A DNA stretch of 64,000 bases, from contig CAVTCR010000019.1 in assembly GCA_963733195.1 (NCBI GenBank), positions 1 through 64,000 on the forward strand. Reading direction: 5' to 3'. Each line of letters opens with the position of its first letter. The first letter of the stretch is position 1. The notes beneath the pieces were generated by a model. It ran no database searches. It worked only from the letters and a program-made list of their open reading frames with translations, and was not told the origin of the DNA. Source of the stretch: an uncultured delta proteobacterium. Lineage in GTDB: Bacteria; Desulfobacterota; Binatia; Bin18. Shown here piece by piece: positions 12,373-19,074 of the stretch. The position numbers and the translations under genes are program-made.

Positions 12373-13275
12373 ATGGGAGCCAAGCTCCGGTTCAGTAAAG
12401 AAACGAGACACAGCAGAACGTCACAACTCATCAGCGGGCAAACGCGGATCGTCGGCATCTTTGGTGATCCGATTGCCCATACACGCTCACCAGCAATGCA
12501 GAATGCCGCGTTTCAGGCACGTAACCTCCCCTACGTGTATGTGCCCTACTTAGTCCGCCCCAGTGAGCTTTCTAGAGCGGTGCAAGGTATTCGTGCTCTC
12601 AATCTCGCAGGAATTAATGTCACAGTACCACACAAAGAGCGCATCGTTCGCTATCTCGATTCGTTGAGTGAGGAAGCCAAGCTGTGTGGAGCAGTCAATA
12701 CGATCGTTAATTGCGAGGGTCACCTGTTCGGAGATAATACTGACGGTCGTGGCTTTCTGCAATCACTGCAAGAGTATGGACTGTCACCGGAACAAGGAGA
12801 GGTCGTGCTGATCGGCGCTGGCGGATCAGCACGTGCCGTGTTGGTGTCGCTACTGCGTGCAGGGTATGGGCCAATCACGATTGTTAATCGCACGGTGGCC
12901 AACGCAAAATCGCTCGCGCGAGATTACCGCAATCTCGGCAAAACTGAGGTGGGCGCGTTACCTCTCGATGCTCTGCAAAACCCACAGCTGTTGAAACGTG
13001 CTTCGCTAATCATAAACAGCACCTCTGTCGGGCTGCACGGCGAAGACTTTTTTCCGCTCGCCTACGACGCTACTCCGCGCAATTGTATATTTTACGATCT
13101 CCTATACAGGTCGAAGCCTACGTCATTCCTGTGCAGAGCACAAAAGGTGCGTCGCGCCATCATCGATGGACGAGAGATGCTTCTACATCAAGGAGCGCTA
13201 GCGTTTTCGCTCTGGACAGGAGTTCTTGCGCCATTACGAATAATGAAGCAAGCGTTAAGTCGAGCACTTCAGTAG
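12373..13275 (+). CDS. aroE: shikimate dehydrogenase
   Basis: SPAMQN, NVTVPHK, GAVNT, GDNTDG, GAGGSAR, DLLY. Confidence 0.93.
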   Translation: MGAKLRFSKETRHSRTSQLISGQTRIVGIFGDPIAHTRSPAMQNAAFQARNLPYVYVPYLVRPSELSRAVQGIRALNLAGINVTVPHKERIVRYLDSLSEEAKLCGAVNTIVNCEGHLFGDNTDGRGFLQSLQEYGLSPEQGEVVLIGAGGSARAVLVSLLRAGYGPITIVNRTVANAKSLARDYRNLGKTEVGALPLDALQNPQLLKRASLIINSTSVGLHGEDFFPLAYDATPRNCIFYDLLYRSKPTSFLCRAQKVRRAIIDGREMLLHQGALAFSLWTGVLAPLRIMKQALSRALQ

Positions 13276-13504
13276 TGCTCTTTCTGGGCCTTGTGCTCGC
13301 TCAATTTCCGTCCTGACTTTCCGATTACGTCTGTAGGAAGAAGTTCCTTCCGATACTTTGCTATTTTCCTCAAAACTCTTGCCTTCCCGGTTCTTTCCGT
13401 TGTAAGGGACAGGGTAAGGAGTGCGCCTCCGCCATGCTAAAGGAACACCTCACTTCTCCCGATACAGGAACCATCACCTACTACTTCCAGAATCCGAGGT
13501 ATTT

Positions 13505-14725
13505 ATGGCAATTTTCATTTGGCAAGGGGTTGGCCCGAACGGCGAGTCCGTACAAGGGGAGATGGAAGCAGCGTCGCGCGACGCTGTAGTTTCTCGCCTT
13601 CGCGCCCAACGTATTCGCCCGAAGACGAATAAGATCAGAGCAAAGGGCAAATTCGACCAGGACATCAAAATCCCTGGGTTTGGCGAGAAAGTCGCACCCA
13701 AAGATATCGTGATCTTCACCCGCCAGCTTGCAACCATGATCGATGCTGGGTTGCCAATTGTGCAATCGCTCGACGTCCTCGCCCAGCAAAGTGAGAACAA
13801 AACTTTCAGCAAGATTATTAAACAGATTAAGCATGACGTAGAAAGTGGAACTACCTTTTCCGATGCCCTCCGTAAGCATAGTAAGCAGTTTGACGACCTC
13901 TATACCAACATGGTTCATGCCGGTGAGATCGGCGGTATCCTTGATACTATTCTCGCTCGCCTATCCGGCTATATGGAAAAGGCGATCAAACTGAAAGCAA
14001 AAATTAAGGGAGCGATGATCTATCCGATCAGTATCGTTTCTGTCGCGATCATCGTCACCGGAATCTTATTGATCTTTGTTATCCCTACTTTCTCAGACAT
14101 GTTTTCCAGCTTCGGCAAGGCTCTCCCGCTGCCGACACAAATTGCCATCAACTTGAGTTACGTCACTATCGCCTATCTCAAGTACATTATTGCCTTCTGG
14201 ATAGCGCTCGTTATGGCTGTACGTATGTGGTACAAGACCGAAAAAGGGCGCTATGCCATTGATGGGTTCTTGCTGAAACTGCCAATCTTCGGTCAACTTC
14301 TGCGCAAAGCCGCAGTCGCGAGATTCACGCGGACCCTGGCAACATTACTCTCCTCCGGCGTCCCAGTTCTCGACTCTCTCTTGATCACGGGAAAAACCGC
14401 AGGAAATAAGGTTGTTGAGAAAGCAATCCTCAATGCACGTCAGAGTATCAGTGAAGGCAAAACATTGACCGAACCGCTGCTCGCTAGCAATGTATTCCCT
14501 CCTATGGTTTGCCAAATGATTAACGTCGGCGAGACAACAGGTGCGCTCGATTCGATGCTCAACAAAATTGCCGACTTCTATGATGACGAAGTAGATAACG
14601 CCGTCAGTAACTTGACTGCCCTGATGGAACCATTAGTGATTGCGTTTCTCGGTATAGTCATCGGTGGTCTCGTTGTTGCCATGTATATGCCGATCTTCAA
14701 AATGGGCTCTATTATTAACGGTTAA
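13505..14725 (+). CDS. pilC: type IV pilus platform protein PilC
   Basis: FTRQLATMIDAG, GEIGGILD, GETTGALD, LMEP..MYMPIF. Confidence 0.93.
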   Translation: MAIFIWQGVGPNGESVQGEMEAASRDAVVSRLRAQRIRPKTNKIRAKGKFDQDIKIPGFGEKVAPKDIVIFTRQLATMIDAGLPIVQSLDVLAQQSENKTFSKIIKQIKHDVESGTTFSDALRKHSKQFDDLYTNMVHAGEIGGILDTILARLSGYMEKAIKLKAKIKGAMIYPISIVSVAIIVTGILLIFVIPTFSDMFSSFGKALPLPTQIAINLSYVTIAYLKYIIAFWIALVMAVRMWYKTEKGRYAIDGFLLKLPIFGQLLRKAAVARFTRTLATLLSSGVPVLDSLLITGKTAGNKVVEKAILNARQSISEGKTLTEPLLASNVFPPMVCQMINVGETTGALDSMLNKIADFYDDEVDNAVSNLTALMEPLVIAFLGIVIGGLVVAMYMPIFKMGSIING

Positions 14726-14731
14726 GAATCC

Positions 14732-16744
14732 ATGTCTGATTCGCAGACCGCTCTGCGCCAGCGCTTCACGTGGTTTCTGCTTCTCCGAGTCGGAATCACC
14801 ACTTGCCTGCTTGGGGCGGTCTTTCTTTCTTACCAACATGGGAGTTTCGCTACACCTTCCGAGCGCATGCTCCTCGGTGTTATCGTCTTCACAAACCTCG
14901 TCTCTCTGACCTCAGGTCTCCTGCTCACTCGAGTGCGGAATCTTGCTGTATTGGCGTACACTCAGGTATTTTTTGATCCACTTTTCGTTACGGGGATTAT
15001 CTTACTCACAGGTGGGATCGAGAGCCCCTTCGCTTTTCTCTACCATCTCGCCATCCTCAATGCCGCCTTTCTTCTCTTTCGCCGTGGCGCACTCGTTGCT
15101 GCGACTATGGCAGCATTGTGTTACGGAAGCGCGGTTGATTTGCTGTATTACGGTATCTTGCCCTACTCGGAATTCAGTGCTTCGGTCTTTTTGCTCGCAA
15201 GTCCAACTCCTGGCCTTGCTCTGACCGTGCGCCTCGCCGCAACCCTCGTCTCTTTCTATCTCATCGCTTTTCTCGGCAGTTATCTCACTCATCGACTATT
15301 TCAAATCGAAATGCTTTTGGCAGCACGGAATCTAGAGTTCGGGCACCTTTCATCTCTCTATCAAGGAATCATCCAACATCTCGAAAGTGGACTACTCATC
15401 ACGAACAACAGGGGTGTTATCGAGTATGCAAATGGCGCAATAGCAGAGATCTCTGGGATTCAAGCAGCCACGTTACTCGGGAAAGCTGTGGCTGACTGCT
15501 TTCCTGTACTACGTGACACGAAAGCTGCTGGGGAACCATTCGAGTTCACCTTTCGTGGGCAAGAGGATCCTGTCGAACGAGTCCTCCGCCTGACGTGCTC
15601 TCCACTGAGCGATACATACGGCAATGGGATCGGCGTGCTGTACAGCGTGCAGGATATTACGAGCGTGAAAACACTCGAACGTAGCTTACAGGCAGTTCAG
15701 GAGACTGAGTATGTTGATTTGCAGAAAGAAGAAGAGGCTGTAGAGACGTTTGCCGGCCTTGTTGGACGGAGCGCAGTGATGAACAAGGTGTACCAGCTCA
15801 TCGCCAAAGTCGCAGGCAGCACAAGCACGGTGCTTATCATCGGCGAGAGTGGTACCGGGAAAGAGCTGGTAGCACGTGCAATTCACGACAAGGGACCGCG
15901 CGCCAAGCGCCCATTTATCCCGGTCAATTGTGGAGCGATTCCAGAGTCACTCATGGAGAGTGAACTTTTTGGTCATGTCAAGGGCGCTTTCACTGGAGCC
16001 GTCAATAATCGATTAGGACTATTTCGAGAAGCTGACGGCGGTACCCTCTTTCTAGACGAAATTGGCGAACTCCCTTTACCCCTACAAGTGAAGCTCCTTC
16101 GTGTCCTCCAAGAACGAGAAGTGACTCCGATCGGTAGCAATAAAGGAGTGCATGTTGATGTCCGAGTTATCGCAGCAACCAATCGCGATCTTGAAGCGGA
16201 AGTTGCAGCAGGACGGTTTCGTCAAGATCTTTTTTATCGACTTAATGTCATCTCCATCTTCGTCCCACCCCTGCGGGACCGCATTGGTGACTTACCGCTC
16301 TTGATCCATCATTTTCTCGTCCGGTTCGCTACCGCAAGTGGAAAGGCTCCTCACCAACTTTCTCCACAAGCAATGCGGGTATTACTCGACTACCATTATC
16401 CAGGCAATATTCGCGAGTTAGAAAATATTATCCAGCATGCGGTCACGATGGCCGAAGAAGACACCATTCGCAGTAAAGACTTTCCGGCACATCTACACAC
16501 GCCGGTTCTTCCCCGCACAGAAAATTCTTCCAAGGGTGGAGAACAGAACGGTAATAGAGCTGAAGCATCTACCGACTTCTTCAGTAAAGGGGTCAGTTTA
16601 GATGCCGAGCTAGAAGCGTACGAGCAGAACATCCTTCGCGCCGCACTCGAAAAGGCCGGTGGAGTCCAAAAGAAGGCCGCCGAAGTCCTTGGCATCAATT
16701 ATCGCTCCCTCCGCCATCGTTTACAAAAGTATCGCTTGCCGTGA
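14732..16744 (+). CDS. membrane-anchored sigma54 activator: PilS-like TM region + PAS + AAA+ + Fis HTH
   Basis: Hydrophobic helices with TGGIESPF, PAS domain (ESGLLITN..VQDIT), GESGTGKE, GAFTGA, LFLDEIGE, FRQDLFYRL, C-terminal HTH; no H-box and no receiver domain. Confidence 0.88.
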   Translation: MSDSQTALRQRFTWFLLLRVGITTCLLGAVFLSYQHGSFATPSERMLLGVIVFTNLVSLTSGLLLTRVRNLAVLAYTQVFFDPLFVTGIILLTGGIESPFAFLYHLAILNAAFLLFRRGALVAATMAALCYGSAVDLLYYGILPYSEFSASVFLLASPTPGLALTVRLAATLVSFYLIAFLGSYLTHRLFQIEMLLAARNLEFGHLSSLYQGIIQHLESGLLITNNRGVIEYANGAIAEISGIQAATLLGKAVADCFPVLRDTKAAGEPFEFTFRGQEDPVERVLRLTCSPLSDTYGNGIGVLYSVQDITSVKTLERSLQAVQETEYVDLQKEEEAVETFAGLVGRSAVMNKVYQLIAKVAGSTSTVLIIGESGTGKELVARAIHDKGPRAKRPFIPVNCGAIPESLMESELFGHVKGAFTGAVNNRLGLFREADGGTLFLDEIGELPLPLQVKLLRVLQEREVTPIGSNKGVHVDVRVIAATNRDLEAEVAAGRFRQDLFYRLNVISIFVPPLRDRIGDLPLLIHHFLVRFATASGKAPHQLSPQAMRVLLDYHYPGNIRELENIIQHAVTMAEEDTIRSKDFPAHLHTPVLPRTENSSKGGEQNGNRAEASTDFFSKGVSLDAELEAYEQNILRAALEKAGGVQKKAAEVLGINYRSLRHRLQKYRLP

Positions 16745-16906: not shown

Positions 16907-16937
16907 TCCACACTGGATGGAAAGTGCTAATTTTTTT
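16907..16937 (+). repeat. direct repeat, copy 1, upstream of pilin 1
   Basis: tccacactggatggaaagtgctaatttttt, matches 17917-17946. Confidence 0.8.
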
Positions 16938-17073: not shown

Positions 17074-17088
17074 TGCCATAAAATGTCA
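17074..17088 (+). promoter_or_regulatory. candidate enhancer (UAS) TGCC-N6-TGTCA for pilin 1
   Basis: tgccataaaatgtca; same motif at similar spacing before pilin 2. Confidence 0.5.
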
Positions 17089-17204: not shown

Positions 17205-17220
17205 TGGCATATACCTTGCT
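17205..17220 (+). promoter_or_regulatory. sigma54 -24/-12 promoter of pilin 1
   Basis: TGGCAT-ATACC-TTGCT fits TGGCAC-N5-TTGCW. Confidence 0.85.
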
Positions 17221-17414
17221 CAAGCAACCTAGCAAGAAAATGCAACTCAGAAAAAAGAGTTAAACCGAGAAAGGAGACTGCCGATATAAAAGACAACGAG
17301 CGTGCTAGGTAGCAACAGAAGGCATGCTCTAAAAGGCAAAAACAGAGTTGGAAGGTAACTTTGGAACATAACCTGTAGCTAAGATTCGTAATTTATTCAG
17401 AGGAGGTCTTCATC

Positions 17415-17777
17415 ATGGTCCTAAAGAGTCAAAAGGGTTTTACTCTCATCGAATTGCTGGTCGTGGTTGCCATCATCGGTATTCTGGCCGCAATTGCTAT
17501 CCCGCAGTTTGCTGCATATCGGAAACAGGCGTTCTGCAGTCGGGTTGAGTCGGATGTGAAAAACGCTGTCACGACGCTTGAAGCCCAATATGCTGCAACT
17601 GAAGACTATACTGGAGCAACCATCAATAGCAGCACTGGTGTAACCGTAACCCCTACCACTGCAACAGACTCAATTACCAGTGTCACTGGAACACATGCGA
17701 ACTGTGATCACGATGCCGACGGTACCTCTGGTGACACATTCACGTTTACGGGTGCCACTGGTCAATACTCCTGGTAA
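17415..17777 (+). CDS. pilA: type IVa major pilin
   Basis: KG|FTLIELLVVVAIIGILAAIAIPQF; RBS aggagg; own promoter and terminator. Confidence 0.92.
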   Translation: MVLKSQKGFTLIELLVVVAIIGILAAIAIPQFAAYRKQAFCSRVESDVKNAVTTLEAQYAATEDYTGATINSSTGVTVTPTTATDSITSVTGTHANCDHDADGTSGDTFTFTGATGQYSW

Positions 17778-17808
17778 TAACAGGCAGTAGCTGAGAGGGA
17801 AGAAACAG

Positions 17809-17852
17809 ACGGCGGGTGTTATCTTACTGATAGCACCCGCCGTTTTGCTCTT
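17809..17852 (+). terminator. intrinsic terminator after pilin 1
   Basis: acggcgggtgttatc-loop-gatagcacccgccgt followed by tttgctctt. Confidence 0.8.
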
Positions 17853-17916: not shown

Positions 17917-17946
17917 TCCACATTCGATGGAAAGTGCTAATTTTTT
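17917..17946 (+). repeat. direct repeat, copy 2
   Basis: tccacattcgatggaaagtgctaatttttt. Confidence 0.8.
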
Positions 17947-18099: not shown

Positions 18100-18420
18100 A
18101 ACGTCTCCCGTTTCTGGCTGGAATATCAACTCTTGGGTCTTTGACCAACCGGTTATCACCTGGTCAATGTTTTGCTCCACGGAGGCAACGCACTCCTCTT
18201 GTGGGCTGTTCTTCGGACTCTTGCTATTCCGGGAGCATGGCTGGCTGCCGCATATGCTGTCAGACTGGAAGGTTTCGAGATGCTGCTGAGCACCGCTCAG
18301 AGTGCAGCCAGCTTAGCAAGCGCACAGGGCAGGCCAGACTTTGCCCAAAGAATCATGGCTCGTCTCCAGCTTTACCAAGCAGGCAGGCCATACCACGCAC
18401 TGCCTTCAAATCTGAGGCAA
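18100..18420 (+). pseudogene. internally deleted TMTC-like (GT-C/TPR) membrane protein relic
   Basis: [46 protein letters not shown] joined to a TPR-type C-terminus ending [11 protein letters not shown]. Confidence 0.65.
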
Positions 18421-18498
18421 AGAGAAGATAGTCCCGATCATGGGCAGGACATTCTTTCCTGAATTCAATCAAATAAAAGAAGCCTTATTTTTTCGCTG

Positions 18499-18554
18499 TG
18501 CCGAAATCTGTCACTACGACATTTCTCGAATCTGTCGTGTGTCGTTTTTTGGCA
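18499..18554 (+). promoter_or_regulatory. candidate enhancer sites for pilin 2
   Basis: tgccgaaatctgtca at 18499-18513; inverted tgtcgttttttggca at 18540-18554; repeated (C/G)TGTC. Confidence 0.5.
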
Positions 18555-18617
18555 ACTGCCTCCCCTTCGTAGCGGAATATCATCAAATTATCTCCCTTAG
18601 TTCATATCAATTCTTAG

Positions 18618-18633
18618 TGGTACTCTTTTTGCT
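18618..18633 (+). promoter_or_regulatory. sigma54 promoter of pilin 2
   Basis: TGGTAC-TCTTT-TTGCT. Confidence 0.75.
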
Positions 18634-18693
18634 TATACAGCTTATACAAAAGAGCTGTTATGGCGGTGTAGATTATCGAAAGGCGCATCCACT

Positions 18694-19074
18694 ATGATAC
18701 AGAATACTAAGGGGTTTACTCTTATTGAATTACTCGTTGTAGTCGCCATAGTAGGAATTCTGAGTATGATTAGTATTTATCAATATGCTTACTTTCGAGA
18801 GGGTTCTTTCTGTGCTCGTGTTGAATCTGATGTTCATAATACAGTTTCAGCTCTCGAGTCTAGATACGCAGCCTTCTACACCTATGCTGGGGTTTCCGCA
18901 ATCCAGACCCAAAGCAACGGTATTGTAATTAACGTTAGTGCAACAGATGACCAGATTACAAATGTCAAAGGCAATCATCCTCGCTGTAAGAAAGGGGATT
19001 TCACTTTTGACCCTCTCGTAAATCCGACATTTCAATGGACTACCCTAATCATCCGGGAAAGTAGCTCCCTTTGA
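18694..19074 (+). CDS. second type IV pilin, paralog of pilin 1
   Basis: KG|FTLIELLVVVAIVG; shares FCxRVESDVxNxV and GxHxxC with pilin 1. Confidence 0.88.
   Translation: MIQNTKGFTLIELLVVVAIVGILSMISIYQYAYFREGSFCARVESDVHNTVSALESRYAAFYTYAGVSAIQTQSNGIVINVSATDDQITNVKGNHPRCKKGDFTFDPLVNPTFQWTTLIIRESSSL

Follow-up and report, generated by a model that had tools for sequence, protein, structure and literature searches.

The DNA analysed here, which we call the window, is a stretch of 64,000 nucleotides from an uncultured delta proteobacterium (GTDB lineage Bacteria; Desulfobacterota; Binatia; Bin18), read from the forward strand of contig CAVTCR010000019.1 of GenBank assembly GCA_963733195.1 (positions 1 to 64,000). 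At 14732..16744 on the + strand it carries a gene that we read as a fusion of pilS and pilR. We propose, with a probability of roughly 0.6, that the product is a working PilS–PilR regulator made of one polypeptide, anchored in the membrane, free of a phosphorelay and set by its PilS-type module, with pilin as the likeliest input. What was computed here is the architecture, the descent of each half, the conservation, the position in the locus, the promoter motifs and the occurrence of rpoN in the genome.

The gene is one open reading frame (ORF) in the ORF list of the window, with an ATG start and 670 codons for amino acids, and its translation is free of internal stops through VQDITSVKTLERSL...ETFAGLVGRS, at about residues 305–347. 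Its N terminus is a PilS-type six-helix membrane domain, residues 3–193 (14738..15310, +), identified by the Pfam family 6TM_PilS (PF25323, 45.4 bits against a cut-off of 27), by hydropathy and by conserved PilS motifs. A PAS domain follows at residues 209–313 (15356..15670, +), matched by PAS_4 (residues 216–313), PAS and PAS_9 and showing PAS-type strands at 219–308 in the structure model. The junction linker, residues 314–342 (15671..15757, +), opens with the start of the PilS post-PAS helix and continues as a variable acidic stretch. The sigma-54 AAA+ domain with its lid, residues 343–591 (15758..16504, +), begins straight after the linker, with no N-terminal receiver; it is defined by Sigma54_activat (PF00158, residues 343–509, 246.5 bits), AAA_lid_14 (PF25601, residues 515–591), its motifs and matches to structures of bacterial enhancer-binding proteins (bEBPs). 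Walker A is GESGTGKE at 371, GAFTGA lies at 418 and Walker B is DEIGE at 442. A Fis-type helix-turn-helix (HTH) domain closes the protein at residues 627–667 (16610..16732, +; HTH_8, 45.2 bits). HisKA, HATPase_c and Response_reg have no Pfam match in the protein at E ≤ 0.01, and no NCBIfam model clears its cut-off with it. With neither DHp/HisKA and HATPase nor a receiver in it, the protein can carry out no phosphotransfer and no phosphatase reaction.

The hydropathy script gives six hydrophobic spans, at about residues 15–33, 47–65, 73–94, 98–116, 120–138 and 162–180, and lysine and arginine residues lie at the N terminus and in the loops 66–72 and 116–119. This charge pattern predicts an N-in/C-in topology with the PAS, AAA+ and HTH domains in the cytoplasm. 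Membrane spans, whose location in the membrane is a prediction, and a DNA-binding domain are in this way found in one polypeptide that has no transmitter or receiver domain. The first-pass annotation had described one uninterrupted 670-residue ORF between pilC and pilA, with a PilS-like transmembrane N terminus, PAS domain, linker, AAA+ domain and HTH in that order, intact Walker A/B and GAFTGA motifs and no HisKA, HATPase or receiver; ORF list, translation, Pfam scan and hydropathy agree with that description throughout.

The sensor half was searched as residues 1–342 against 1.84 billion representatives, in which 2268 matches reached E ≤ 1e-3 and 850 reached E ≤ 1e-10. Among the best 150, most are 530–600 amino acids long and align with ~30% identity over about residues 5–322. 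Sorted by BLAST, these 150 comprise 124 kinase-type, 10 AAA+-type and 16 proteins of neither kind (mostly short fragments), a sort that used one kinase probe and one AAA+ probe and made at least one kinase-type call (P0180) that is wrong by Pfam. The Pfam scan covered 12 of the 150. All three scanned proteins of the 530–600-residue type are kinases with 6TM_PilS, HisKA and HATPase (PAS above threshold in two), six of 650–775 residues are fusions resembling that of the window, and there is one PilS-type module that has HisKA and a further PAS, one 6TM_PilS–PAS–beta-lactamase protein and one fragment. The beta-lactamase case is P0180, a protein of 751 residues on a 308 kb metagenome contig in which the PilS six-helix and PAS module is joined to a beta-lactamase/transpeptidase-like domain; it is a second case of a PilS sensor module wired to another output.

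The motifs W..LRV, FAY.Q...D, TGG..S.F.FLY, RRG and YG....L.YYG.L are common to the consensus of 30 kinases and to that of 106 fusions. The arginine of helix 1 (R19) is kept in at least 90% of the 106 fusions, and the arginine in the same helix-1 motif is invariant in the 30 kinases. PilS alignments stop at fusion residues 316–324, ahead of the DRLAA...HE box of PilS. No solved structure matches residues 1–311. The end-to-end alignment with canonical PilS kinases and the common motifs indicate that the sensor half is derived from a PilS kinase.

For the output half, a 49-row tree built on the AAA+/HTH region has a clade (SH-aLRT 98) that holds all 17 fusions and 11 of the 12 PilR genes adjacent to pilS; the twelfth PilR, on a long branch, falls outside it. 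A second tree of 59 rows unites 23 fusions and all 16 PilR genes with a support of 99. Both trees place the 20 sigma-54 paralogs that the window's genome encodes outside the PilR/fusion clade, in the 59-row tree across the branch supported at 99. PilR alignments begin at fusion residues 339–343, and canonical PilR enters its AAA+ domain via a helical linker. The best PDB and NCBIfam matches of residues 312–668 are NifA, ZraR, FleQ and NtrC. The two trees thus trace the output half to PilR, and the PilS and PilR origins that had been proposed for the two halves are both borne out by alignment and phylogeny.

These breakpoints make an in-frame deletion the most likely origin of the fusion, one in which pilS lost its DHp and catalytic domains and the adjacent pilR its receiver. 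It would have run from the start of the pilS DHp domain through the end of the pilR receiver or of the receiver linker. The sensor-half tree suggests that this happened more than once. Among its 52 rows a branch with support 99 splits 21 fusions (the window's, 12 further in-class fusions and 8 metagenome representatives) from 27 PilS kinases together with four fusions, L189, L190, L191 and P0190. L189 groups with four PilS kinases at a support of 97, and branches supported at 95% or more imply that the architecture changed at least twice. The output-half tree agrees, with weaker support there (93). The junction differs by lineage as well: it has 33 residues in the window, 12 in P0190 and, in L189, an uninterrupted K/E-rich run of about 38. 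In an approximately unbiased (AU) test of a reduced set (31 rows, LG+G4) a single clade of all fusions, a group that was named after the tree had been seen, was not rejected (p-AU 0.222).

The fusion is a conserved gene family of uncultured soil bacteria and no one-off accident. We searched 5.8 billion proteins, scored 8000 candidates and inspected the best 120 clusters, of which 116 have PF25323 and PF00158 in one protein of 561–725 amino acids with 44–92% identity to the query; HisKA, HATPase and receiver families are listed in none of these 120. The remaining clusters (P0045, P0070, P0071 and P0076; 385–522 residues) have no membrane domain and look N-terminally cut, and P0045, with 505 residues, may be the gene at locus L027 of genome G002 called from a later start. 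The source labels of the clusters are metagenome-assembled genomes (MAGs) named 'Deltaproteobacteria', 'Candidatus Binatia', 'Thermodesulfobacteriota' and 'Methylomirabilota', and the JGI annotation of these homologs is often PilR.

In a survey of 31 genomes, the window's own and 30 relatives, the fusion gene is present in 18, full length in a single frame in 15, cut by a contig end in two (G003 and G014) and split between two frames in one (G013). The other 13 have no match to it. PF25323 exceeds its cut-off at the fusion gene in the same 18 genomes, and the only further match over the cut-off in all 31 is a 731-residue frame (G023:C1); in the window's genome the fusion gene is the single match. 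None of the 13 fusion-free genomes has PF25323 over the cut-off, with weak sub-cut-off matches only in G027 and G028. G002, which carries an in-frame TAA in the gene and is counted among the 15, is of the same genus as the window's genome and is rated 100% complete.

In an even sample of 151 genomes from the phylum, PF25323 occurs in 121, mostly in frames of 500–640 residues, the length of canonical PilS. Five of the longer frames were checked whole, and those of G059, G069 and G053 are full-length fusions outside the window's class with 39–43% identity; pilC lies directly upstream in all three and a pilin within the 1.5 kb flank in two. The long frames of G146 and G077 were ruled out as fusions by whole-protein comparison. 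L109, from a MAG labelled Thermodesulfobacteriota, is not a fusion either: it has a pilR-like gene and then a separate pilS, a reversed order that mimics a fusion in tables that merge BLAST pieces. L045, from a MAG labelled Candidatus Binataceae, has pilC and then a PilS of canonical length (in a frame of 521 residues where the contig ends), and MAGs with a Binatia label thus include both forms.

Mean identity to the window's protein over 105 homologs is 0.51 in the membrane domain, 0.46 in PAS, 0.70 in AAA+, 0.77 in HTH and 0.32 in the linker. The catalytic motifs are all invariant in 106 aligned full-length homologs with identities down to 39%, and in the alignment Walker A, GAFTGA and Walker B occupy columns that are invariant or conserved to at least 90%. 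It had been considered beforehand that the fusion might be a one-strain deletion, with separate pilS and pilR in the relatives. The 116 of the best 120 clusters, the 18 of 31 genomes and the three out-of-class fusions speak otherwise; conserved in many independent assemblies, the fusion is no such deletion. It is also very improbable that the gene is a functionless, decaying pilS–pilR remnant, as has been proposed for Rsp of Neisseria gonorrhoeae. Rsp is described, in a paper that cites it, as a remnant without a role in pilE transcription, and the family does include an in-frame stop at codon 148 in G002 and the gene split between two frames in G013. Against decay stand the full-length open frames, the invariant catalytic motifs and the spread of 106 homologs down to 39% identity; gene order and the sigma-54 promoter motifs are also conserved, and the genome has rpoN.

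The gene directly upstream of the fusion, at 13421..14725 (+), encodes the type IV pilus platform protein PilC (T2SSF, E 4e-72; among NCBIfam models PilC scores best, without reaching its cut-off). In 13 of 13 loci from related genomes pilC is likewise immediately upstream of the fusion, and a pilin is found downstream by tblastn in 11 of the 13, among which L023 has a mere 37-residue piece. Of the two loci without a pilin match, L026 has none and L027 has a flank of only 536 nucleotides. The class III signal motif was detected in 10 of the 13. Loci from Nitrospirota, Acidobacteriota, Polyangia and others have the canonical order pilC–pilS–pilR, and the fusion fills exactly the pilS–pilR slot of these loci, in keeping with the claim that it sits after pilC where the two separate genes normally are.

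Two pilin genes follow in the window. The first, at 17415..17777 (+), encodes 120 residues with E5 and P22 in the mature form, and the second, at 18694..19074 (+), encodes 126 residues with E5 and with tyrosine at position 22 (N_methyl and alignment in both cases). Each is preceded by a sigma-54 type −24/−12 motif found by pattern match: TGGCATATACCTTGCT at 17205..17220 (+), 210 nucleotides before the first gene, and TGGTACTCTTTTTGCT at 18618..18633 (+), which ends 60 nucleotides before the second. TGGYAY-N5-TTGCW has only these two matches in the 64 kb, both on the + strand; 0.27 are expected and two were reached in 4 of 100 shuffles, a chance estimate that is post hoc because the relaxed pattern was chosen after the sequence had been read. 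Relatives lend independent support: among 11 loci, the window included, this pattern precedes the first pilin gene in six, and the other five have GG-N10-GC near-matches picked by eye. A candidate upstream activator site, TGCCA-N5-TGTCA, lies at 17074..17088 (+), 121 nucleotides before the −24 element. YGTCA occurs 107–126 nucleotides upstream of the −24 element in 7 of the 11 loci, usually as the second half of YGMCR-N5-YGTCA. The PilR sites of Pseudomonas are tandem repeats ending in TGTC.

The genome has one rpoN (contig C62, Sigma54_DBD E 8.5e-64), 12 matches to T2SSE pilus/secretion ATPases (10 over the cut-off), four secretins and two prepilin peptidases. Its best T2SSE match lies ~70 kb further on the same contig (C19:84244-85407). 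The gap between aroE and pilC is 145 nucleotides in the window (13275-13421) and, by tblastn coordinates, 1–2.2 kb in several relatives (among L016, L019, L020 and L026), where pilB or pilT is perhaps inside.

An inverted repeat with a T-rich tail 3' of the first pilin gene (17800..17852, +; repeat scan and sequence) is a likely terminator, and two ORFs of 96 and 85 residues between the pilin genes (18141-18697) have no Pfam match. Contigs from a soil metatranscriptome run cover pilin gene 1 (17314-17800) with few differences (record 10: 1 in 143 nucleotides), a hint that close relatives express it in soil. These RNA contigs possibly come from relatives and give no readable transcript start, and depth at 17404-17507 is too high because all pilins have the same N terminus there. 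A 30-nucleotide direct repeat (93% identical copies at 16907-16936 and 17917-17946) flanks pilin gene 1 and its promoter. Its only other copy in the genome is on contig C66 near 46464, beside an integrase-like ORF and with an inverted partner ~110 nucleotides off. The repeat may mark a site of recombination or where a mobile element ends; a role as an enhancer was set aside in view of that integrase-like neighbour and inverted partner.

The AlphaFold2 model, built on 106 sequences, has a mean pLDDT of 80.4 and a pTM of 0.45. In it helix 6 runs from 160 to 216 out of the membrane and straight into the PAS fold at 219–308, a further helix spans 310–332, pLDDT falls below 50 at 326–337, and the AAA+ domain is followed by a disordered stretch at 593–617 and then the HTH. 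The linker from T310 to G342 is 32–33 residues long in 66 of 106 homologs and 40 in 20, with other lengths of 12–42. Its first ~17 residues are conserved and helical, and the remainder is acidic and variable and contains proline and glycine.

A flexible distal linker would suit a constitutive activator that is anchored in the membrane, whose AAA+ module would always be active for want of the receiver and whose output is set by the amount of protein, maybe through co-translation with pilC, or by its location at the pilus machine. The start codon of the fusion lies 6 nucleotides after the pilC stop, with no strong ribosome-binding site visible at it, and deletion of the receiver renders activators of the NtrC1/DctD type constitutive. 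PilS-specific motifs and the PAS domain are nevertheless retained at 44–92% overall identity, and a mere anchor is unlikely because an anchor alone would not be expected to retain them. We regard constitutive activity as improbable.

More improbable still is a latent activator whose tether holds the AAA+ and HTH domains off DNA until cleavage in the acidic linker frees a soluble form. Membrane sequestration by BtdS turns off the bEBP RedR2 according to the part of PMC10084136 that was available, and the linker of the fusion is variable, with low model confidence at 326–337. The wide variation of linker sequence and length is at the same time an argument against a conserved cleavage site, and neither a protease gene nor a recognisable cleavage motif was seen in the locus.

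We infer the following course for the targets, the DNA site, the nature and sign of the signal and the way in which the oligomer works. A six-helix and PAS module in the inner membrane would be connected by a linker of ~30 residues to a PilR-type AAA+/HTH enhancer-binding module. The protein would bind the candidate site ~120 bp before the −24/−12 promoter of the first pilin gene, and perhaps act on the second pilin gene too, and an ATP-driven oligomer would remodel sigma-54 RNA polymerase at the pilin promoter. In place of phosphotransfer, the membrane/PAS module would set the activity directly through its conformation or its state of oligomerisation, and the pilin pool of the inner membrane would be the signal, in a negative feedback. 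By analogy with Pseudomonas PilS, this pilin pool is the most likely input. The first-pass annotation had suggested that membrane pilin could gate oligomerisation of the activator directly; the PilS motifs kept in the membrane domain, among them the helix-1 arginine, and E5 and P22 of pilin 1 lend this weak support. The interaction of PilS with the pilin PilA is described in PMC6058289 and PMC6528607, and the latter, in the part available, reports that R24 of PilS and E5 and P22 of PilA matter for it. A co-fold of two copies of residues 1–200 with mature pilin 1, each with its alignment, gave a score of 0.00 in a run without controls.

The architecture and the targets could be the same and the signal something other than pilin, sensed by PAS (a cytoplasmic ligand, redox or energy state) or given by the state of the membrane, with the transmembrane domain mainly anchoring or localising the protein. 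The PAS domain is conserved (mean identity 0.46) and is placed between the membrane domain and the AAA+ domain, and soluble one-component sigma-54 activators with PAS or GAF domains are common (387 of 431 in Clostridiales are one-component in the accessible portion of PMC6615313). We nevertheless think such a signal unlikely, as the membrane domain keeps specific PilS motifs beyond mere hydrophobicity and canonical PilS kinases have PAS too.

Several observations weigh against the proposal that the fusion is a working regulator with pilin as its input. It rests on sequence analysis and modelling. The strict promoter pattern TGGCAC-N5-TTGC has no match in the window, and the relaxed one was picked after this failure and after the sequence had been read. 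E5 and P22 are near universal in type IVa pilins, so their presence in pilin 1 says little. The distal half of the linker is variable and acidic and contains proline and glycine, and for this reason a rigid helical coupling of PAS to AAA+ is not evident in the window's clade. Among characterised sigma-54 activators, the literature searched offers no precedent for a hexameric ring that brings together 36 membrane helices and binds DNA at the membrane. Across four public runs, present as short Logan contigs, no contig record bridges the junction at 15704-15745; the best of the runs contains 0.29 of the sampled words, and the contigs near the junction cover 15333-15714 (X3 record 26) and 15760-16288 (X1 record 3). 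At L027 (G002:C17) the fusion has TAA at codon 148, a position in the loop preceding helix 6 that is GAA (E148) in the window; either the membrane domain is truly truncated there or the assembly is wrong. Rsp, the only published fusion of the type, is reported by a citing paper not to control pilE. More tentative than the proposal itself is a broader form of it, which we would rate as possible but doubtful: that the fusions are a class of integral-membrane sigma-54 enhancer-binding proteins (EBPs), perhaps with more than one origin by deletion between neighbouring pilS and pilR genes, in which pilin bound within the membrane by the PilS-type six-helix domain directly gates assembly of the AAA+ ring, pilin autoregulation needs no phosphorylation and activation of the pilin promoter takes place at the membrane.

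The fusion matters for the question of how pilin binding by the PilS membrane domain is conveyed to the cytoplasm. With this module wired straight to an ATPase and DNA-binding output, the fusion dispenses with the balance of kinase and phosphatase and with a second protein, and its signal and output could be read in one purified membrane protein or reporter strain. If our proposal is true, it would be the first studied sigma-54 activator to oligomerise and touch its enhancer while embedded in the membrane, which bears on how such regulators reach DNA.

The closest system is PilS–PilR, and the closest published architecture is gonococcal Rsp. PilS–PilR of Pseudomonas aeruginosa and of loci of the Geobacter/Myxococcus type has the same six-helix and PAS sensor, an output half in the same AAA+/HTH clade, the same slot after pilC beside pilin, and pilin genes with the same kind of sigma-54 promoter. 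The fusion differs in being one polypeptide without DHp/HisKA, HATPase and receiver domains, and in having an activator predicted to be an integral membrane protein. The Rsp fusion is reportedly due to Carrick, Fyfe and Davies in 2000 (FEMS Microbiol Lett 186:197). In the available parts of PMC6528607 and PMC10269533 Rsp is cited as a PilS–PilR fusion, with an N-terminal PilS membrane receptor and a C-terminal PilR DNA-binding part; one of the two gives it no role in pilE transcription and the other states that it represses. The first-pass annotation had held the architecture to be undescribed, and this has to be withdrawn in view of those papers, though they treat Rsp as a remnant. Compared by description, Rsp is a supposed remnant, whereas the present family is conserved, with intact ATPase motifs, sigma-54 motifs and rpoN. 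Gonococci are not known to have a functional sigma-54. The full-text literature that was searched, mostly without subscription journals, yielded no conserved functional PilS–PilR fusion family and no integral-membrane sigma-54 activator, Rsp being the only related case. A PilS–PilR fusion as such was therefore already known, and what is apparently new is a conserved, intact and apparently functional family of them.

Control of an AAA+ domain by a fused sensor without phosphorylation is shared with NifA, NorR, DmpR/XylR, PrpR and TyrR; these are soluble, whereas the sensor of the fusion is a six-helix membrane domain. ToxR, CadC and TcpP are of sigma-70 type with winged-helix or similar domains and mostly have a single membrane span and a periplasmic sensor, whereas the fusion is an ATP-driven EBP that needs to oligomerise. 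In the survey PMC10269533 they are one-component regulators that bind DNA while anchored in the inner membrane, as the fusion would. In the negative control of NtrC1/DctD a dimeric N-terminal module acts via a helix, and likewise the sensor of the fusion could hold the AAA+ domain as an inactive dimer. The uninterrupted K/E-rich linker of ~38 residues in the out-of-class fusion L189 resembles PilR linkers. In the window's clade, in contrast to NtrC1/DctD, only the first ~17 linker residues are conserved and helical, and the module consists of PAS and membrane domain with no receiver. Beside these systems the fusion clearly exemplifies, in nature, the collapse of a two-component system to a one-component one, a course that had been suggested earlier, in the portion available of PMC10269533, as an origin of transmembrane regulators.

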